Positions 49,290 to 62,853 of a stretch of DNA of 64,000 nt are shown piece by piece. The translations under genes and the position numbers were made by a program. Under the pieces are notes generated by a model. It searched no databases, had not been told where the DNA came from, and was given only the letters and a program-made list of their open reading frames with translations. Location: positions 162,837 to 226,836 of the forward strand of contig JAJUFP010000001.1 of assembly GCA_029263715.1 (NCBI GenBank). Reading direction: 5' to 3'. Numbering within the stretch: the first letter of the stretch is position 1; the number at the start of each line of letters is the position of its first letter. Origin of the DNA: Nitrososphaera sp. Lineage in GTDB: Archaea; Thermoproteota; Nitrososphaeria; Nitrososphaerales; Nitrososphaeraceae.

Positions 49290-50339
49290 GGTTCTGTAAA
49301 ATCTTCAGATCATCACTGCCTCGCATGAACAGCTAACGTGACATTTCCCTAGAGAGATACTCTATGCGAAATTAAGCATCACACTACCTATTTTGATAAT
49401 TAGTGTATATCCCTGAGCCGATCTGTTGCACCTTTAGAATGAGCCAAAGATGTTACAGAACCCAACGGATGAAGAATTGAAAGTACATACCAAATAGAAC
49501 CTTATGAGAATACCGTCTTTCTGGATCACGCCCGCGCCGGCCTTATCGGTCGATCTTCTTTGGCCTCCTAGGGTAAGGCCTTAACTCTTATGAAGTCGAA
49601 TATCGTAGACCTGAATGGATATGCCTGAGCAACAAGCCTCTGATCAAAATAAAAAAATTGTGGAAGCATCTGATTCCGCAACAACGATACCGTTGGCAAA
49701 TCCCTTCCTTTATGTTCCTAAGATCATGTTTTTCACAAAAGGAAAAGGGATCCATAAAGATCATCTTACCAGTTTTGAGCTAGCGTTACGCGATGCACAA
49801 ATCTCAGACCTGAATCTAGTGAGTGTTTCCAGTATAAAGCCTCCTGGCTGCAAGATAGTTAGTATTCAGGAAGGAAGGAAGCATCTTGTGCCGGGACAAA
49901 TAGTATTTGCCATTACGGCGCGTTCGTCCACAAATGAACCCAACAGGTTAATTGCAGCATCAATTGGCCTTGCAAGGCCTGTCGATGATGCGAGCCATCA
50001 TGGTTATCTGTCTGAGCATCATAGTACTGGAGAAACCGCTCAGAAAGCAGGAGATTACGCGGAAGATATGGCCATGGAAATGCTTGCAACGACACTCGGC
50101 TTGCCTGACGATCCTAGCCTTACATGGGATCAGAGAGAAGAACAGTGGAAGCTGTCGGGCAAGATTTACAGAACACAAAACTTTACGCAGTCAGCAGAAG
50201 GAAACAAGGATGGCCTTTGGACAACGGTTCTAAGTGCAGCCGTCTTAATACTCTAGACACTGGTGATTCTCCGTCGTATAGGAAATGTCATCTTAGCTGT
50301 TCATGCGAGGCAGTGATGATCTGAAGATTTTACAGAACC
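49290..50339. mobile_element. Non-autonomous transposon-like cassette: 59-bp terminal inverted repeats (IS6-like ends), 8-bp target duplication, pdaD passenger
   Basis: 49290-49336 is the exact reverse complement of 50293-50339 (47 bp). After 2 mismatches, a further 10 bp match (49339-48 / 50281-90). Flanks gcctaaac / acctaaac. No transposase inside. Confidence 0.85.
49615..50256 (+). CDS. pdaD: Pyruvoyl-dependent arginine decarboxylase
   Basis: 'LTSFELALRDA.I...NLV.VSSI.PP' (S-S self-cleavage site), 'NEPNRLIAASIG', 'GYLSEHH', 'WTTVLSAAV'. Confidence 0.95.
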   Translation: MDMPEQQASDQNKKIVEASDSATTIPLANPFLYVPKIMFFTKGKGIHKDHLTSFELALRDAQISDLNLVSVSSIKPPGCKIVSIQEGRKHLVPGQIVFAITARSSTNEPNRLIAASIGLARPVDDASHHGYLSEHHSTGETAQKAGDYAEDMAMEMLATTLGLPDDPSLTWDQREEQWKLSGKIYRTQNFTQSAEGNKDGLWTTVLSAAVLIL

Positions 50340-50388
50340 ACCTAAACCAACATTTAAAAAGCGGAAGAAAACCATCCTACGAACGTAT

Positions 50389-50557: not shown

Positions 50558-50917
50558 ATGTCAGAAGAAAGTCTATCCCGTGTTTACACTATAAACCTTG
50601 GAAGGGCCTGGCTCACTCCAGAGTACAGGAGGACCGACCGGGTGGTCAACATGATCAAAGAGTTCGCAGAGAAGCACATGAAGAGCAGCGAGATCAAGCT
50701 CGACCAGGACCTCAACAGGCAGGTCTGGAGCAGGGGCAAGACCAATCCGCCGCGCAAAGTCCGCGTCAAAATGGTCAAAGACGAGGACGATGTCGTGACT
50801 GTCTCGTTGTATGAAGAACCAGAGACAACCGTCAGTACGACTCCGGCTATCGAAAGCAAACCCGCTGAAGAAAGCAAGCCGGCAGAAACGACTGAAAAGA
50901 CCGAAGAAAGTAAATGA
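50558..50917 (+). CDS. rpl31e: 50S ribosomal protein L31e
   Basis: 'RVYTINLG', 'IKEFAEKHMK', 'LDQDLNRQVWSRG..NPPRKVRV'. Confidence 0.97.
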   Translation: MSEESLSRVYTINLGRAWLTPEYRRTDRVVNMIKEFAEKHMKSSEIKLDQDLNRQVWSRGKTNPPRKVRVKMVKDEDDVVTVSLYEEPETTVSTTPAIESKPAEESKPAETTEKTEESK

Positions 50918-51106
50918 GAGCAAGCACTCATTATTTGCAAAAACATGCCGGCATTTTATCATTTTTGATAAGTCGGCTTGACAAAGGTTCTTTAGTTACA
51001 GGAATACTTGAAGGTCGAACCGTTCAAAAGAACGAAGCGGATAATCGACATAATTGAGGAATAACTATATGAGATTCGCATAGGAATAATCTAAAGACTC
51101 TAAAAT

Positions 51107-51964
51107 ATGTCCAATGATGATGTATACGTACTAGAAGATGTATTTACCCACGATCCCTTAGAATGGATTTCTTTGAGTAGATACGGTGAGCCAGCTATAT
51201 CGGAAGCATACCATGATTACAAGCATTATTTTCGCTACTTGGTTGAGACGTGGCGAAGGTTGCAAGAAGATTACGCCAGATTGGGTTCCTATGCCAAGAA
51301 ACTTGATCAATCGATGGATGCTGGCATAGAAAACGATGATGGAGCCATTCAAGAATACTTCCGAACCGTGCTTCTTGTTCAGATGGATACCGAAAGTTTC
51401 ATTATGTTTTCTAATAGGTTCATGGATAAGGCCGGCAAATTCATAGAGCGAATAATTAAGTCTAATGACGACAAGACGGTTGGTAACACCTTTGGAAAAC
51501 ATAAGGATTTCTTTATCGCGCCAAACAACCATCACTACAATCCTGCTTATTCACAATTTCTAAAGGACAACACTGCATGGTATGGACAATTGTCTGCCAT
51601 GCGCGACAAGTTGATAGAACATGGTGCAAGGAGTTTTAACAACGCCCTTCTCACATCGCCAAAAAAAGGTAGAATATACGTACTAAAGAACCATTCCTTT
51701 TTCCGTGTTACTCCAGAGGATGGATCAACGCTATCTGAAATAAAGAAAAACTATGAAGGCAAATATCCTGAGCTTGTTAAGGTTGTTGATAATGCATGGG
51801 AAATATTAAGATGTATCATGGAGAATAATATTGAATTAAACAGCAAAGATACAAAAAAAGTAATGGAAATAAACACAAGGATGGGCGGCTTGCTAGATGC
51901 ACCTGGCATTGCGAGAAACATCAAACATTTCCTTGAAGAGGTTGCTAGGATGGTGGGTTCTTAA
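51107..51964 (+). CDS. HEPN-like (Cthe_2314-type) helical protein
   Basis: All-helical; 'ESFIMFSNRFMDK' and 'MRDKLIEH' (Rx5H); AT-rich. Confidence 0.6.
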   Translation: MSNDDVYVLEDVFTHDPLEWISLSRYGEPAISEAYHDYKHYFRYLVETWRRLQEDYARLGSYAKKLDQSMDAGIENDDGAIQEYFRTVLLVQMDTESFIMFSNRFMDKAGKFIERIIKSNDDKTVGNTFGKHKDFFIAPNNHHYNPAYSQFLKDNTAWYGQLSAMRDKLIEHGARSFNNALLTSPKKGRIYVLKNHSFFRVTPEDGSTLSEIKKNYEGKYPELVKVVDNAWEILRCIMENNIELNSKDTKKVMEINTRMGGLLDAPGIARNIKHFLEEVARMVGS

Positions 51965-52126
51965 GTCCATAAAACTAAGATTATGGAAAATTACAAGATA
52001 TCAGCGCATCAATGTCGTTGAACGAAAACATTCTCACCTGAAATATAGTTGATGCTAATTTACACAACTGTACAAAAATCTTGAACTTTGTTATTACAAA
52101 AATAGGAGGGGTTGAACCTCCAACCC

Positions 52127-54550
52127 TTACTGTTGTGTTTCTCTCAGGCAGAGGCCAACCACGGCAGACGCGTAAAAGCCTACGAAGCCGCTGTTGACTA
52201 TCGTCCTGTCCCACACGTGAAGGGTTACCACGTATCCGCACCTTGGCATCAGCAGGGTATCCAGAGACCAGGTTCCAGCTTCTCCAGTCGTGGGCACCAC
52301 GGGGTACGCTCTTGGCAGTGGCGACGGGCTTGTAAAGTTGACCCCTCCCAGGTTGGGCGAGACCGTGAGGGTGAGGCTTCCAAAGTGAAGGTCGCCGGCA
52401 GAATACGTGCCCGATATCGTGTCGCCGATGAGGAAGTCTGCGCAACCGCCTCCTCCAGACGTGATTGCGATGCTGGCCGATGGTCCCACGTTGTCGAGTC
52501 TGACGTTGATGGTCTGAACTCCTGGGTAGATGATGTCTGTTACAGGATCCTTTGCCTCTATCTTGATCTTCCACATCCCGTTCATGCCGCCACTGGTTAT
52601 CCAGTGTGCCAGGACGTTCTGGGAAACAAAGCGCTGTGGGTTTCCGGGTCCTCCAGTAAGGTCCTCCTTGTACTCGTACCAGCCTTCGTCGTCGGCAATC
52701 TGGTCTGCAGCAGTGGGGCCGGTCCATATCCCGTCGGTAAGCTCTGTCAGCCATATGGTGAACTTGTTGTTCACCCGCTGCCATGTCAGGCCGCCGTCGT
52801 CGCTGACCGACACCCTGTACTTTACAGGCGCCGCGCCTCCTCCCACCACGTCCGGTGGGTACGCGATGTGGCCAGTGATGGCAATCAAGCCTCCAAACGG
52901 GCTGTCGTTTGCGGTAAAGCCTGCCCCTACGGCCGGGCCGTCGGCTAGGCCTGTGAGGCTGTCAATGCTTGCCACGGACATGTTTCCAACAGTCTCGATG
53001 AACGGCGTGTAGACCGTGACTGAGGGTCCCGGCAGTATCTGGATCCGCGTCTCTTCTCTGTTGCCCCATGTGGGGACATAGTTCGGATCAGCCGGCGGTG
53101 GTGGAGTCTGCCAGGAAAGTATTGCCCGCACCTTGGGAGTAACAGCTCCCAGCCCGCACGGCCTGCGCCGACTAAACGAGTTCAGCGGCAGGAACACGGC
53201 GTAATCAAGCCCTTCTACCGGGATGTTGCTAAAGTCGTGGGTGTTTACTGAAGTGGTGCCAGCATAGGTCCATCCTGCCCCATCGCCCCAGTCCACCCAG
53301 AAGGCCACGTACTCTGTGCTGCCTGCCGAGCAGGGGCCGCCGGAATATCCGTTGGGCAGTTTCACCTTGATTATGCCCACCAGAGTATCCTGATCTCTGT
53401 TCAGGCCCACGCATGTTAACTCTTCATACCTTGTGTCGCCGTCCGTCTTGATGATGACGTCTATTATGTCTGCTAGGTTTATGTCAAGGCCCTGGAAGAT
53501 TGTCTTGGGGCCGGCCAGCATCAGGGGTTCTGCAAATGCCGGTTTGGACATCATCTTGGCTACCTCTGAAAAGGCAAAGCGGTGCACTGGCACTCCCTTT
53601 TCCTTGTACATCTCTGCCAGCTGGACTACGCCGAGGGGCTTGGGCTTTGGAATCGGGATGGGCTTTTCAATCTCAACTATGGGTCCTATGTCTGGAATCT
53701 TGACCTTCAGGATGTCAAATATGTCCTTGGGGAGTATGAACTTGATCGAGTCTATCTGTATGCGCGACTCTCTGACGTTGCCCCAGACCGGTATGAAGCC
53801 CGGTGTGTTGGCCGGCGGCGGAAAGTTCCATGAAAGTATGGCCCGAACCTTGGGCAGGTTTTCAACGGTGCAAAACTTTTCAGTCGGGTCGATGTTCAGG
53901 GTGACGTCGTATTCCAGCGGCTTTAGGCCGGGGATGTTGTACGCGTTAAAACTAACCAGTCCCAGGTCGGTCCATGTTCCGTTATTGTTCCAGTCAATGT
54001 AAAAGCGCACGTACTCCGGCGTGCCAACAGAGCATATGCCCGTGCCGTAGCCGGACTGCTGCTTGATGTGGACCACTGCTTCAAGTCGTTCAAACTGCGG
54101 GTTGTAACCCACACACTTGAGCTCTTCGTAGCTGGTGTTTGAAGCTATTATCTTGACTGGTTCAAATGGTGCCTTGATGTTGCCAAAGTAGTTGGGGTTC
54201 TTTAGGATCAGGGCTCTGAACTGCAGCCTCTCCGGCTCAACCTGGATGTTCCTACCAGCGGCTGCCAGGACAATGTCTGTAAACCTTTTTGGTCCTACGG
54301 TCTTGACGTCCTCGACGTCCTGTAAAGACCTGAACTGGCCGCCAAGCTCTGCCCTCCTGCTGATAATCCTCTCGGCCACTTTGATTCCGATGTCCTTCTC
54401 GCCATGAAACTCGATCGCTTCGGCTATCTCTTTTGAAGTCTTTGCACTGTTGAGAAATTCAAGGATCTTCCTTGTGTCTTCCTCTGAAACATCTTTTGGA
54501 GAAATTGTAGAGAATGTTTCTCTTCCTTTTGCAATTAGTTCGTGCTTCAT
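52127..54550 (-). CDS. 807-aa protein: N-terminal helix-hairpin-helix, two tandem Cys-containing beta repeats, C-terminal beta module
   Basis: HhH 'IGIKVAERII..R...GQF.SLQDV.DV..VGPKRF'; repeats 'YEELxCVG...EYVxFxxDW...PKVRAILSW..PPP...PxWGN..E.RIQI'. Confidence 0.9.
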   Translation of the reverse strand: MKHELIAKGRETFSTISPKDVSEEDTRKILEFLNSAKTSKEIAEAIEFHGEKDIGIKVAERIISRRAELGGQFRSLQDVEDVKTVGPKRFTDIVLAAAGRNIQVEPERLQFRALILKNPNYFGNIKAPFEPVKIIASNTSYEELKCVGYNPQFERLEAVVHIKQQSGYGTGICSVGTPEYVRFYIDWNNNGTWTDLGLVSFNAYNIPGLKPLEYDVTLNIDPTEKFCTVENLPKVRAILSWNFPPPANTPGFIPVWGNVRESRIQIDSIKFILPKDIFDILKVKIPDIGPIVEIEKPIPIPKPKPLGVVQLAEMYKEKGVPVHRFAFSEVAKMMSKPAFAEPLMLAGPKTIFQGLDINLADIIDVIIKTDGDTRYEELTCVGLNRDQDTLVGIIKVKLPNGYSGGPCSAGSTEYVAFWVDWGDGAGWTYAGTTSVNTHDFSNIPVEGLDYAVFLPLNSFSRRRPCGLGAVTPKVRAILSWQTPPPPADPNYVPTWGNREETRIQILPGPSVTVYTPFIETVGNMSVASIDSLTGLADGPAVGAGFTANDSPFGGLIAITGHIAYPPDVVGGGAAPVKYRVSVSDDGGLTWQRVNNKFTIWLTELTDGIWTGPTAADQIADDEGWYEYKEDLTGGPGNPQRFVSQNVLAHWITSGGMNGMWKIKIEAKDPVTDIIYPGVQTINVRLDNVGPSASIAITSGGGGCADFLIGDTISGTYSAGDLHFGSLTLTVSPNLGGVNFTSPSPLPRAYPVVPTTGEAGTWSLDTLLMPRCGYVVTLHVWDRTIVNSGFVGFYASAVVGLCLRETQQ

Positions 54551-54637
54551 TACAACCTAATACAGGTACTTTGTAATAAAATTACTGGAAATAGATACTG
54601 GCAAAAATTATGTAAAAATAACAGACATGATTACTAT

Positions 54638-54846
54638 ATGCCGGAAATCTGTGATCAATGCTTTCTCGAGATAGCAGGTAAGTTTTTAAAAAAAGGCAAT
54701 TTAGTTACTGCGTGCCAATCGACGTCTGTCCTGTCTGCTACAAGTTCCTGCAGACGATTTACGATAAGAAAAAGATGAAGGAAGTGCGGCTCAGCCCTGA
54801 CCAGCCATGCAAAAGTACATACCACAAGAAACTTGTCGATAGGTAG
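54638..54846 (+). pseudogene. Small CxxC/CxxC Zn-finger ORF split by a -1 frameshift at T TTA AAA AAA G (programmed shift or homopolymer indel)
   Basis: Frame 0 MPEICDQCFLEIAGKFLKK joins -1 frame RQFSYCVPIDVCPVCYKFL...DR*; the -1 frame is closed upstream by TAA at 54679-81. Confidence 0.55.
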
Positions 54847-54912
54847 AGCTTGTTAGAAAAGCTCGAAGATATGGCAATGACACATTCGAAAATAGGAGGA
54901 ACCCTTTATACG

Positions 54913-57198
54913 TCATTTCGGACAGCTCTGATCCAAGGACACTGCAGCGGTGTCTTGACTATCATAACCTTCAATTCTGCTAGAACCATTTGTGTGCTTT
55001 GCATACGCATAAAGTCTTATGGCGAAGGTACACCTTATGTGTACGGTATCCGGCGTGGTTGAAGTATCGGTGAGCATATCCTCGAACGCCAACGCATTGG
55101 ATTCCTTGGCGTTTGTAGAGTTTAGGACAGCTGGTATTGGAGTTGGCGCATTGCTAGTTCCAGTCTCTATAGTACCTCCATTTCCGCTCAATCCTCTATG
55201 ATACCAAAGAATGTAATTGTTCATGAATTCGTCTTCATGGAAGGCATAGAATCCTACTGAGAAGGTATCAGCCGGGCATCCTACTATATACTGGCACTCT
55301 TCCAGCGACGCAATACCGTTCTTCCTGAAATCTACGATGTCAGCATAGCAATGCACGTTATTAACATGAAACATGTGTGTCAATGCTGCAAAATTTACCA
55401 CTTCTGTATTGTCAAAATCCTCCCATTTTCTGTAATTGAACGCAATTCCAGTACCAGCTCCAGGTGCTGCGCCTGGTTTCAGTCTATTCTTGGCAGCATC
55501 AAATATCTCAACAATTACAAGGTATTTGCCATTGCTGATAAAACCAATTCCTGGATCTGACGATGTGGTATCTGATGACACAGTATTCCATCTTTGATGG
55601 TACTGCAACCAAAGCCATCCCAGAGGTGCATCAGCCTCGTATGGTATCTCTATAAATCCATCTGCGTCGGGTCCAAGATGCACTGGTACAGGCTTTATGT
55701 CTCCACCCACGTTTTCCCATTTGTACCATGTAACATTGCCAAGCAAAGATACAGGAGTGCCTATGGGATTCCCATCTGAATCTGACTCCACAATACTTAC
55801 CTTATAATATTTGGCGCCCTTGACCTTCAACCCTTCTGTGAACTTCAGTCTTAATGCCAGCGTTTGACCCCATGGAGCATTTGTGATGGTACCTGTATTG
55901 CCATCATAATAACTGTCAAGCAACCCGTCGGTTGGATCTGCTGATGATACGCCATATTCCGAATCCTGATCAGGGCTTTGAAGTTTGTAGCTTGGTGTTG
56001 ATCCAACATATTCAAGCAATACGAAATCATCACCAGTATCCGGGACATCGCTTGGTGGCTGGCATGCCTGTCCCTTCCATGTGCTTATAGCAGCTTCCTC
56101 ATCTGCCTTGAAATATTCATTGACAGTGCTGCCATCATATATGTACACCCACTTGTTTACCTGGAACTGTTTAACCTTGTAGTAATATGTCGTCGTGCAT
56201 ATCTTAAGACGTATCTTAGGTATGTTAGGGAAGCAGAAGCTGAACTCGCCACTTTCATTCACGGTTGTTTCTCCAATCTTCTTTGAACTACAGCTGCAGA
56301 AGAGTGGTTTCAGATAGTAATGTTCGTCTATGTATTCAAGCTGTTTCTCAGGAGCGAGTCTGCTCATTACAACGGCATCTGAAATCAGTCTCTCTGGTAT
56401 GTTCCCAAGAGGCAGTTCTTTACCTACTGCAAGCGTCTGCTTTAGCGATTTTGAGAGTAATTTGAATGGTGCTGGATCCGGTCCTGGACCGGGTTTCGGT
56501 ATCGGTTCTGGCTTTGGCGGTATGTCAAATATTGGTCCCGGATCTGGTATCGGAGGCTGCTCCTCCAGCCATTCAAAGATCTTGCACGGTATACACTCAT
56601 CAATTATTATCCGTGGATCACAACAGCAAGTCTTCTGGTAGATCTCAACTACGGCGTTGCAGATAGGGGCGCATGTCTTCAGCTCAGAGATCTCTGGATT
56701 TATTGCGGCACCTTTTACTCGTGCAGCTATGCTCTTACTCAAAGCTCTCGTTGTTATGCTCCTCTCGAACTTCGAAAACAACTTGTCTGTAATAACCAAA
56801 GGCCACCAGATTGGGGTGCATTTCCTGACACTCCCATGGACACACGTGTAGATGAATAGCCAGTCTCTCCATTTTGGAATGACTTCAATTATTCCACTGT
56901 TCTTCCATTCATCAAACTTGCTTGCTCGGTATGTTACAAGCATCTCTTTTGTGACCAGTTTCTCATCTATGTCTGGACCTATTGCAAAGGTTCCTTTCTG
57001 AGATGCTATAAGACGGGATAACTCTTCTGCTTCGATACTGTTACCCTCGATCGATTTGAACTTCTTGATGATGCCCTTCGAGCCTATTACAAATAGCGCT
57101 ATCTTTGGTTGTTTCTCATCAGGTTTAATTCCAATAAAATTGAATTCAAGCGTCCGTCTACTGATTTTACCTTCAGAGCGGCTTTTCTTTTCAGCCAC
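54913..57198 (-). CDS. 761-aa Cys/Pro-rich beta protein (carboxypeptidase-regulatory/transthyretin-like segment plus C-terminal module)
   Basis: 'CNAVVEIYQ...GETTVNESGEFSFCF', Pro-rich 'PIPDPGP...PGPGPDPAPF'; no signal peptide. Confidence 0.88.
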   Translation of the reverse strand: MAEKKSRSEGKISRRTLEFNFIGIKPDEKQPKIALFVIGSKGIIKKFKSIEGNSIEAEELSRLIASQKGTFAIGPDIDEKLVTKEMLVTYRASKFDEWKNSGIIEVIPKWRDWLFIYTCVHGSVRKCTPIWWPLVITDKLFSKFERSITTRALSKSIAARVKGAAINPEISELKTCAPICNAVVEIYQKTCCCDPRIIIDECIPCKIFEWLEEQPPIPDPGPIFDIPPKPEPIPKPGPGPDPAPFKLLSKSLKQTLAVGKELPLGNIPERLISDAVVMSRLAPEKQLEYIDEHYYLKPLFCSCSSKKIGETTVNESGEFSFCFPNIPKIRLKICTTTYYYKVKQFQVNKWVYIYDGSTVNEYFKADEEAAISTWKGQACQPPSDVPDTGDDFVLLEYVGSTPSYKLQSPDQDSEYGVSSADPTDGLLDSYYDGNTGTITNAPWGQTLALRLKFTEGLKVKGAKYYKVSIVESDSDGNPIGTPVSLLGNVTWYKWENVGGDIKPVPVHLGPDADGFIEIPYEADAPLGWLWLQYHQRWNTVSSDTTSSDPGIGFISNGKYLVIVEIFDAAKNRLKPGAAPGAGTGIAFNYRKWEDFDNTEVVNFAALTHMFHVNNVHCYADIVDFRKNGIASLEECQYIVGCPADTFSVGFYAFHEDEFMNNYILWYHRGLSGNGGTIETGTSNAPTPIPAVLNSTNAKESNALAFEDMLTDTSTTPDTVHIRCTFAIRLYAYAKHTNGSSRIEGYDSQDTAAVSLDQSCPK

Positions 57199-57579: not shown

Positions 57580-57762
57580 TCAAGTCTTAAATCCGCAGAT
57601 ATCGCACTTTTCAAACACAGTCCCGTCAAGGTGGTCAAAATGCGCACCGCACGCCCTGCAGGTGTGGTGGATATCGGTATAGCCGTCTGAGGCGACAAAG
57701 CTCTTGCCCTCAAGATCCTTGCTCTTGCAAACTATGCAGCGACAGCCGCAGACGATCTCCAA
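57580..57762 (-). CDS. Small multi-Cys Zn-finger protein
   Basis: 'CRCIVC', 'HTCRACG.HFDH', 'CDIC'. Confidence 0.8.
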   Translation of the reverse strand: MEIVCGCRCIVCKSKDLEGKSFVASDGYTDIHHTCRACGAHFDHLDGTVFEKCDICGFKT

Positions 57763-61015: not shown

Positions 61016-61342
61016 TGCAGGTTATCGACAATCATCCGCTATAATACATTATTGATAGGGTATCAATCCGTCAAGATATGAGGCGTGATATGGTTTAACC
61101 ACAATTATCGGCTCGCCTTTCATAGCCTCTCTCCGGTTGACTCAAGTGATCTGTGTCTCTATCCTGTGGCGTAATAGACAAGTCACTCAGCTCTAACGCA
61201 GTAAGAAGTACTGCACCGAACTCTGTTAACAATGATGGGCGCGAATTGTTATACTCTACACCTGTGTGTGAAAGTACAACAATTAGGCAACAACTCCATT
61301 GGCAGCATAAGTCTTTTAAATAGAAACCATGCCTTATTAGTA

Positions 61343-62575
61343 ATGCACCTCAAGGTATTATCGATACCGTTAAGCTTGGTGCTCCTGACTGGAATGATTT
61401 CTATTAACAACCTGGGGCAAGCATATGCAACCGTTTCTACCGCATGTACAGCGTCTCTCGATGGTTCACAAGAAGTGCCACCTGTTGAGACAGAGGGTAC
61501 CGGATCGGCAACGATGACTTTTGATCCGTCCAGTAACGAATTGTCTTGGTCTATAGAGTTTTCTGGGCTGTCAGGTCCTGCCACTGCAGCGCATTTCCAT
61601 GGGCCTGCAGCTGCCGGAACAAACACCGGGGTACAAGTGAATATAGGAGACGTCTCGGGCCTCGTCTCACCAATGGAGGGGTCTGTTGAATTAACTCCAG
61701 AGCAGGCATCTTTCTTGCTCGACGGGCAGATGTACATTAACATTCACACCGCGGCGAATACTGATGGGGAAATTAGAGGGCAAGTGTCGTGCGAGCCGTC
61801 TCCTCCCCTCCCCGAAGAGTCAGCGACTGCCACGCTAATAATTGGTGGCAACGAATTTGATATACAGTACATGATCAGTGGAGGTACTTTAGACGAGCTG
61901 AATGCAGACCCAGCAGTGCGGACATTGTTACTTAGCATTTCCTCCACTTCAGACGGCACACTAACTGTCTGGCTCCCAAGCGACGTGATAGACGCAGACG
62001 ACGAGTTCGCTGTGTTCGTTGACAGTCAATTCGGGAATTTTGTCGTTGACGAGCTGGATCCTACCACCGATGCTAGGGTTCTCCAGATTGAATTCGAGAA
62101 TGGAGCTAGGGAAATCGAGATAGTGGGTACATTCATGGTGGGAGGAGAAGAACCTGCACAACAGACAATTTCTGTAGAGATAGAAGGACAGACATACGAG
62201 ATTCCGTACGAGGTCACCGAAGCCTCTGTACAAGGTATGACCGCAGATACCGATTCAAAGAGTCTAATGATGAGCATTTCCTCCACTTCAGACGGCACAC
62301 TAACTGTCTGGCTCCCAAGTGACGTGATAGACGCAGATGAGGAATTCTCCGTACTCGTTGATGGTGAATCGGGAAATTTCATTGAACTGGATCCTACCAC
62401 CGATGCTAGGGTTCTCCAGATTGAATTCGAGAATGGAGCTAGGGAAATCGAGATGATAGGTACCTTCATAGTACCAGAATTTGGCGCGATAGGAATACTG
62501 GTAATGGGAATCGCGATTGTTGGAGCAATCGTTGCGACGACAAGATTCCACAAATTCGGGGGCCTACGAACGTAG
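61343..62575 (+). CDS. CHRD domain plus two tandem thaumarchaeal surface domains with PEFG-CTERM sorting signal
   Basis: Signal peptide; CHRD 'L.GSQEVPP...AAHFHGPA...MYINIHT....GEIRGQ'; C-terminal 'VPEFG' plus TM plus basic tail. Confidence 0.93.
   Translation: MHLKVLSIPLSLVLLTGMISINNLGQAYATVSTACTASLDGSQEVPPVETEGTGSATMTFDPSSNELSWSIEFSGLSGPATAAHFHGPAAAGTNTGVQVNIGDVSGLVSPMEGSVELTPEQASFLLDGQMYINIHTAANTDGEIRGQVSCEPSPPLPEESATATLIIGGNEFDIQYMISGGTLDELNADPAVRTLLLSISSTSDGTLTVWLPSDVIDADDEFAVFVDSQFGNFVVDELDPTTDARVLQIEFENGAREIEIVGTFMVGGEEPAQQTISVEIEGQTYEIPYEVTEASVQGMTADTDSKSLMMSISSTSDGTLTVWLPSDVIDADEEFSVLVDGESGNFIELDPTTDARVLQIEFENGAREIEMIGTFIVPEFGAIGILVMGIAIVGAIVATTRFHKFGGLRT
61934..62454 (+). repeat. 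Intragenic direct repeat with near-identical DNA blocks
   Basis: 47 bp starting at 61934 equals that at 62273; 68 bp at 62054-62121 equals 62387-62454. Confidence 0.92.
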
Positions 62576-62643
62576 CAGAGCTTTTTTTATCTGCATCCTT
62601 TTTCTTGATTTCTACAGCTCGCCGATGATTAGTCTGGCTCTCC

Positions 62644-62853
62644 TTAGCGCAGATCCTCAACATTCCACTGTTTTTTGGCGTTTCTCTTCCAGAGCCGTTT
62701 TACCGACCAGGGTATTCCAAAGGTGATGGGGAGGAAGAAAAAGAAGAAGTAGATGCCGTAGAACAACAAGACAACGGTGGCGATTATAGCTGCGGCTGAC
62801 AATGCAAGCAGTATTATCGGCAATGTCTTGCTCTCTTGTCTGCCGGACATCAC
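62644..62853 (-). CDS. Small membrane protein
   Basis: Long hydrophobic, Phe-rich segment. Confidence 0.7.
   Translation of the reverse strand: MMSGRQESKTLPIILLALSAAAIIATVVLLFYGIYFFFFFLPITFGIPWSVKRLWKRNAKKQWNVEDLR

Follow-up and report, generated by a model that had tools for sequence, protein, structure and literature searches.

Two large genes lie side by side on the minus strand of a 1.92-Mb Nitrososphaera-type genome assembly (GenBank accession number GCA_029263715.1), and the question that they raise is whether their products work together. The stretch of DNA analysed here, called the window below, comprises 64,000 nucleotides of contig JAJUFP010000001.1 (positions 162,837 to 226,836), and coordinates refer to it unless another source is named. 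The two genes, A807 (52127-54550) and B761 (54913-57198), are intact open reading frames (ORFs) of 807 and 761 amino acids (aa), co-oriented and 362 bp apart. An initial annotation, made from the sequence alone, took their products for distant paralogs that co-assemble as a two-component system, for example a filament, shell or lattice binding nucleic acid through a helix-hairpin-helix (HhH) domain of A807. The reading favored here, with only slightly better than even confidence, is that A807 and B761 function independently, were acquired separately and belong to a single superfamily of beta-sandwich proteins (about 700 to 800 aa) with a shared C-terminal module, not described before, and that they do not form a two-component machine. 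The best account of why they are neighbors is that related single-gene units were inserted twice, independently, at the same hot spot.

Two families of one superfamily

A807 and B761 represent two families, A and B, which form one superfamily with a collinear two-sandwich C-terminal module over which about 270 residues were matched. The relationship is remote, as neither BLASTP of A807 against B761 (E = 1.3) nor hidden Markov model-versus-sequence searches between the families (E ≥ 0.04) gave a significant match. Profile-profile alignment with hhalign paired A residues 514 to 797 with B residues 424 to 751 over 271 columns (E = 1.3e-4), collinear up to the very C termini, and placed opposite each other all five motif pairs by which the initial annotation had matched the last 300 or so residues. 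Probabilities of the A-versus-B profile matches were 54 to 85% (E = 1e-4 to 6e-6), with 85% (E = 6e-6) reached in a local run, and a divergent B subgroup (P0203-P0210; E = 1e-74 to B) links the two families, with a 94.5% match to the profile of A (E = 8e-8). Control profiles made by reversing or block-shuffling A stayed below 1.5% probability, with alignments of 14 to 52 columns. In two independent AlphaFold2 (AF2) models, DSSP states agreed for 77% of the 266 positions aligned, compared with 40 to 49% in a shifted-register control, and for 84% of the strand residues. Taken together, the profile matches, the controls and the DSSP agreement led us to accept remote homology of the C-terminal modules, and the paralogy proposed earlier is borne out.

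A search for the A family gave more than 2,985 clusters, 47 to 74% identical, from Nitrososphaerota, Methanosarcinaceae, cyanobacteria and proteobacteria, and the family is put at more than 3,000 clusters at 90% identity. Its members are more than 50% identical between archaea and bacteria, an unusual degree of conservation. The B family is less common and its sequences diverge more, with 899 representatives (50% identity, E ≤ 1e-3) among 1.84 billion proteins, and its full-length proteins are all about 700 to 800 aa long. Among 301 genomes of the phylum, A was found in two and B in one, which confirms A807 and B761 as accessory genes, and their horizontal spread is likewise supported; in both respects the initial annotation was right. 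Neither family is covered by Pfam, NCBIfam or the PDB, and no relative of either was found in the 2.9 million viral contigs of IMG/VR. Plasmid records yielded the A family only, on three Ralstonia megaplasmids. In the literature, the motif NPNYFGN, which characterizes the A family, had no match, and the term GEVED domain led to one adhesin paper only.

Some relatives depart from the usual domain content. In Thiodiazotropha and Chromatiales (L173-L176), standalone proteins of about 220 to 250 aa contain nothing but one R-type (GEVED-like) domain, which is 32 to 40% identical to the A807 repeats R1 and R2 described below. Cyanobacterial A homologues (L001-L003) have a transthyretin (TTR)-like sandwich in place of the N-terminal HhH. 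This domain matches a B-family profile (B34) at its small internal sandwich (E = 1e-3), which points to domain exchange between the A and B families.

Genomic company of the two families

The co-occurrence of A and B was followed in 80 B-family genome loci (flanks of up to 10 kb), 80 A-family metagenome loci and 50 B-bearing genomes. An A gene lay near B in 2 of the 80 B-family loci, both from L013 and L014, two relatives of the source genome with about 91 to 94% nucleotide identity and the same synteny. No B gene lay near A in any of the 80 A-family loci, and no full-length A gene was found anywhere in the 50 B-bearing genomes; in 4 of these, a standalone R-type domain was all that was present. 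B is also missing beside the nearest A homologues (72%, 63% and 53% identity), and other Nitrososphaera B homologues (45 to 50% identity) occupy different loci without A. Among the 160 loci surveyed, no tandem superfamily pair was present apart from the A and B genes kept in L013 and L014. In bacteria and archaea alike, a gene of either family is a unit by itself or, in a sizeable minority of cases, half of a two-gene cassette with a small membrane protein that resembles DUF1360. Homologs of the two genes thus do not co-occur, an outcome that the initial annotation had itself named as a refutation, and the conserved neighborhood is confined to one lineage. The co-assembling two-component system is not supported, and no evidence of a filament, shell or lattice was found.

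The neighbor just mentioned was first exposed by neighbor clustering as a small protein beside A genes that matches DUF1360 (PF07098; E = 1e-5), and many of its homologues carried a PF07098 annotation already. This partner family comprises at least 7,900 clusters, and its members have three hydrophobic segments; W-R-x-x-H, E-x-G-P, R, C-x-x-C-x-S and E are invariant among them. A profile of the partner located it beside A genes in 24 of the 71 loci with enough flank (34%), mostly directly downstream on the same strand, and beside B genes in 8 of 69 (12%), the finds including an archaeal locus and the A gene of a Ralstonia megaplasmid. The 50 B-bearing genomes contain 10 copies of the partner (8 beside B, 1 beside a protein of locus L179 and 1 orphan), so that 9 of 10 adjoin a superfamily gene. 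When the search was started from the partner, with four arbitrary homologues on long contigs, a superfamily gene of 711 to 749 aa stood immediately upstream in all four cases (one A-type, one B3/B4-type and two divergent B-type). The partner tree has two clades (support of 100 and 99), in each of which A-linked and B-linked partners are mixed, which indicates that the two families use the same partner interchangeably. That interchangeability, in turn, indicates that A and B are functional equivalents and not partners of one another. Searches of the window and of the whole source genome found no DUF1360-like gene, and the positive control of the same search recovered all 8 known copies.

Further observations concern individual members of this association. 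The L179 protein of a Gemmatimonadaceae genome (687 aa; L179 8815-10875, minus strand) is intermediate between A and B, with a B-like PGPGPDPAPF linker, an A-like Asp-box and a DNTAP start; it represents a third branch of the superfamily and is directly followed by the DUF1360-like gene. The orphan copy, from an Acidobacteriaceae genome (L178 8520-8906, plus strand), has no large beta-sandwich neighbor and adjoins a sigma-54 activator gene and a phage-tail-sheath-like gene. On the megaplasmid of Ralstonia solanacearum PSI07, a cultured and well-studied species, an A homologue with 41% identity (L177, GenBank accession number NC_014310.1, 1592862-1594889) precedes a DUF1360-like gene; the PLSDB table gives no annotation for it. 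An apparent fusion of an A gene with DUF1360 in L144 was dismissed, as its long ORF runs in an alternative frame. Mutual exclusion of HhH and partner was likewise rejected, as L130, L149 and L153 have both a divergent HhH-like N-terminal domain and the partner.

With this association, DUF1360 has for the first time a consistent partner in genomes; literature searches on the family found no functional data and no link to large beta-sandwich proteins or to export. A superfamily gene and a DUF1360-like gene might constitute a previously undescribed two-gene module of bacteria and archaea, in which the membrane protein would export, oxidatively fold (through its invariant CxxC) or tether to the membrane a large protein of beta-sandwiches without a signal peptide, and A807 and B761 would be partner-less derivatives. 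We regard this as possible but unlikely. If true, such export, folding or tethering would be a new non-classical route of envelope targeting. The two-gene cassette is in any case open to experiments on how large proteins that have no signal peptide get to the envelope or become attached to it.

The insertion site and the two proteins

The GC content at third codon positions (GC3) is 0.66 in A807, within the range of host core genes (0.65 to 0.68), and 0.43 in B761, a difference that fits separate acquisition of the two genes. Purifying selection acts on both, with ratios of nonsynonymous to synonymous substitution rates relative to L014 of 0.08 (A807) and 0.10 (B761), and both are functional genes. 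The 362-bp spacer between them (54551-54912) is kept in L013 and L014. It holds an AT-rich TATA-like stretch directly 5' of the A807 start and small zinc-ribbon-like ORFs on the opposite strand, a layout that suggests separate transcription units. Two small ORFs with Cys pairs (CDQC... and CPVC...) lie within it on the plus strand (54638-54846) and, if expressed, would make A807 and B761 separate transcription units. A truncation of the A gene in L013 was considered and rejected, since a run of N in the scaffold explains the apparent break.

The flanks of the site are archaeal core genes, namely, a tubulin/FtsZ-family gene (cetZ), a MiaB-like gene and an L31e-like gene. Two segments that lie no more than 6 kb from the pair are insertion polymorphisms relative to L013 and L014. 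The segment with pdaD, which encodes a pyruvoyl arginine decarboxylase (49290-50340), is precisely missing from both relatives, whose alignment passes from position 50341 straight to 49289. The other insertion (50906-52097) is present in this genome only, L013 and L014 having about 130 bp there, and carries g285, a 285-aa gene (51107-51964, plus strand) with a low GC3 of 0.41. The absence of both segments from the relatives indicates that the site between cetZ and the L31e-like gene is an insertion hot spot, and this would be why A807 lies beside B761. The initial annotation had called this neighbor HEPN-like. The assignment was not confirmed, g285 having no match in Pfam (HEPN profiles included), NCBIfam or PADLOC, and g285 is absent where the pair persists and thus belongs to no unit with it. 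A807, B761 and g285 match no defence model in PADLOC-DB 2.0. A further indel near the pair, of about 1.6 kb (61052-62643), has no counterpart in L014, where the alignment passes from 61051 to 62644. Between B761 and the tubulin/FtsZ-family gene lies a 60-aa, four-Cys, zinc-ribbon-like ORF (57580-57762, minus strand), which is 93% conserved in L014.

The coordinates of protein features that follow are all on the minus strand. As the initial annotation had stated, both proteins lack a signal peptide and a transmembrane anchor, which the ORFs and hydropathy confirm. No N-terminal hydrophobic segment or transmembrane-like stretch was found in either, the maximal KD19 values being 1.74 in A807, where the maximum falls in a C-terminal beta strand, and 1.16 in B761. 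The Pro-rich linkers are also present in both (Pro content of 7.7% in A807 and 7.1% in B761). The description as Cys-rich is apt for B761 (19 Cys, 2.5%) and does not apply to A807 (9 Cys, 1.1%), in which the family alignment shows six Cys without variation and two more with almost none.

The AF2 model of A807, built from the family alignment, has a predicted local distance difference test (pLDDT) score of 87.6 and a predicted template modelling (pTM) score of 0.80. Its first domain (residues 23 to 97; 54260-54484) is a helical ComEA-like (HhH)2 domain recognized by sub-threshold profile matches. The early assignment of this domain holds in part. The model has paired helices at residues 54 to 97, and 21 of 58 A-family members match HHH_3 with E values down to 4e-8, but A807 itself scores below the cut-offs, with a weak 23.5 bits against PF12836 HHH_3 (Pfam cut-off, 27) and a weak 20.7 bits (E = 3e-4) against the comEA model TIGR01259 (cut-off, 152). 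Most A-family members lack the HhH, which is an optional module. There follow a helix and the invariant NPNYFGN motif (residues 106 to 124; 54179-54235), where R108, F111, N118, N120, Y121, F122 and G123 are invariant in the family alignment, and the GEVED-like beta-sandwich repeat R1 with three Cys (residues 137 to 263; 53762-54142; AF2 strands at 142 to 263). The Pro-rich linker PIPIPKPKP and a helical region (residues 264 to 370; 53441-53761), with low pLDDT at 280 to 300 and helices at 308 to 368, separate R1 from the second sandwich repeat, R2 (residues 371 to 503; 53042-53440), defined by the model and by its similarity to R1 (41% identity, E = 1e-28, an internal repeat). The shared C-terminal two-sandwich module, delimited by hhalign against the B family and by secondary structure (residues 514 to 807; 52130-53011), holds an Asp-box, SDDGGLTW (residues 583 to 590), and an 'LDNxxP' domain start; BNR/Asp-box matches occur in 16 of the 58 members. 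Against Pfam, A807 gave solely the sub-threshold HHH_3 and GEVED matches.

B761, a member of the more divergent sister family, has no Pfam match. Its AF2 model, likewise built from the family alignment, reached a pLDDT of 84.1 and a pTM of 0.72. The protein begins with an alpha/beta domain (residues 16 to 129; 56812-57153) that is conserved across the B subgroups, followed by a Cys-cluster hairpin defined by alignment (C176, C180, C191 to C193, C202 and C205; 56584-56679), in which C176, C180, C191 and C192 are invariant among 73 sequences. The Pro-rich disordered linker PIPDPGP...PGPGPDPAPF (56461-56559; pLDDT < 50 at residues 219 to 246), of which PGPGPDPAPF is conserved, leads through a helical region to a small TTR/CarboxypepD_reg-like sandwich with AF2 strands (residues 301 to 373; 56080-56298). 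The shared C-terminal two-sandwich module, recognized by hhalign and secondary structure, occupies residues 410 to 759 (54922-55971).

Possible roles and comparison with known systems

An envelope-associated binding or scaffold role, in which swappable add-ons would set the location, has about an even chance. The conserved core, with GEVED-like, Asp-box and Big-like sandwiches and conserved Cys, would bind other molecules or serve as a scaffold at the cell envelope. The localisers would be an HhH module (to DNA), a PG_binding_1 module, a Sec or lipoprotein signal peptide, or the DUF1360-like membrane partner, the last for tethering or export. The HhH of A807 would tether its core to DNA, and B761 has no recognizable localiser. 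In favor of an envelope role, Sec or lipoprotein signal peptides occur in 5 of 120 A members, and N-terminal PG_binding_1 (E = 4e-18) or HhH modules in some; that the recurrent partner is a membrane protein points the same way. The domain types of the superfamily are GEVED-like, Asp-box sandwich, Big-like with a 'DNxAP' start and TTR-like, with conserved Cys triads. No catalytic fold or motif was found in A807 or B761. Foldseek searches with both whole-chain models against the PDB and BFVD returned only multi-immunoglobulin (multi-Ig), macroglobulin (MG), arrestin or S-layer-type folds and no enzyme, the BFVD matches being generic Ig/FN3 domains.

Several points weigh against the favored reading and the envelope role attached to it. 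Two genes that each occur in less than 1% of the phylum, that are adjacent, co-oriented and homologous, and that are kept in three genomes make an unlikely coincidence, and cooperation of A807 and B761 peculiar to this lineage is conceivable. About 95% of members, A807 and B761 included, have no signal peptide, and the PG_binding_1 variants begin at residue 1 without one. Surface proteins do not typically keep more than 50% identity between archaea and bacteria. A cytoplasmic location would suit HhH domains just as well, and the source genome has no DUF1360-like gene.

The same observations can be read in three other ways. The A and B proteins may be intracellular and membrane-proximal, acting as DNA-associated proteins or as stress or defence sensors, with the DUF1360-like protein as a tether at the inner face of the membrane and the HhH binding chromosomal or invading DNA. 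The general lack of signal peptides, the presence of the HhH and a sporadic distribution suggestive of horizontal gene transfer, in which some accessory regions carry integrases, toxin-antitoxin genes or transposases, agree with such a role, but we consider it unlikely, because the two proteins have no PADLOC match and no nuclease, ATPase or other effector domain, because no recurrent defence neighbor was found in the surveyed loci, because variants with a signal peptide, lipobox or PG_binding_1 exist, and because all of the domain types are typical of extracytoplasmic proteins. Alternatively, A and B proteins may be the cargo of a dedicated non-classical export system in which the DUF1360-like protein forms a holin-like or type 10 secretion pore to the envelope or medium, so that the partner-less A807 and B761 would take another route or leave by lysis. 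Endolysin-holin gene pairs consist of a large protein without a signal peptide beside a small membrane protein, an arrangement mirrored by a large superfamily protein without a signal peptide beside the small three-segment partner. The tight cassette in all four partner-first loci, PG_binding_1 at residue 1 in some A members and the use of Sec by a few others fit this as well. It is nevertheless quite unlikely, since the partner ends in a tail of net acidic charge where holins have a basic one, the invariant WRxxH, EDGP and CxxC suggest a cofactor or redox role and not a pore, the partner is not adjacent to two-thirds of A genes or to almost 90% of B genes, and no experimental link between DUF1360 and export was found in the literature.

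The explanation originally offered, a hetero-oligomeric filament, shell or lattice held together by the C-terminal modules of A807 and B761, with the HhH binding nucleic acid, appears very improbable. It would account for adjacent, co-oriented genes with homologous C-terminal modules, for purifying selection on both and their retention in three related genomes, and for the lack, in both, of the DUF1360-like partner seen elsewhere. It is opposed by the absence of co-occurrence beyond L013 and L014 in the loci and genomes surveyed, where the closest A homologues lack B and other Nitrososphaera B homologues lack A, by the differing GC3, by the spacer with its opposite-strand ORFs and by the interchangeable use of a third partner by both families. 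As a nucleic-acid-binding lattice of two components is not upheld, the pair itself is of modest interest.

Among known systems, the ComEA (HhH)2 DNA receptor resembles the N-terminal 75 or so residues of A807, which are predicted to be helical like an HhH pair. Unlike ComEA, A807 scores under the curated cut-offs and has no membrane anchor or signal peptide to place the HhH outside, and in the A family a 700-aa core may or may not carry the HhH. Holin-endolysin and type 10 secretion systems share with relatives of A807 and B761 the pairing of a large protein that has no signal peptide, and in some cases has PG_binding_1, with a small protein of three transmembrane segments encoded next to it, but the superfamily has no lytic enzyme domain, the partner has an acidic tail with invariant WRxxH and CxxC, neither family occurs in viral contigs, and the source genome is without the partner. 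The best Foldseek matches, all tandem beta-sandwiches, were multi-Ig/MG proteins (bacterial alpha-2-macroglobulin, PrgB Ig-like domains, the Deinococcus HPI S-layer protein and arrestin/Vps26). Their template modelling scores of ≤0.30 and root mean square deviations of >12 Å indicate that this resemblance is one of generic fold only, and neither a thioester or bait region nor features for S-layer anchoring were observed. GEVED is the stalk domain of fibrillar adhesins of the CshA type (PF20009) (PMC10952558). The R1/R2 sandwiches are weakly GEVED-like in 22 of 58 A-family members, and both groups are built entirely of beta-sandwiches without an enzyme fold. However, A807 scores 16.4 bits against a PF20009 cut-off of 24.4 and lacks a signal peptide, a wall anchor and a long repeat stalk, and the A family is far more conserved and has relatives with a DUF1360-like partner. 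The likeness to DUF1360 (PF07098), finally, belongs to the recurrent neighbor and not to A or B, and the transferable result of the analysis is the new superfamily together with this DUF1360-like partner.

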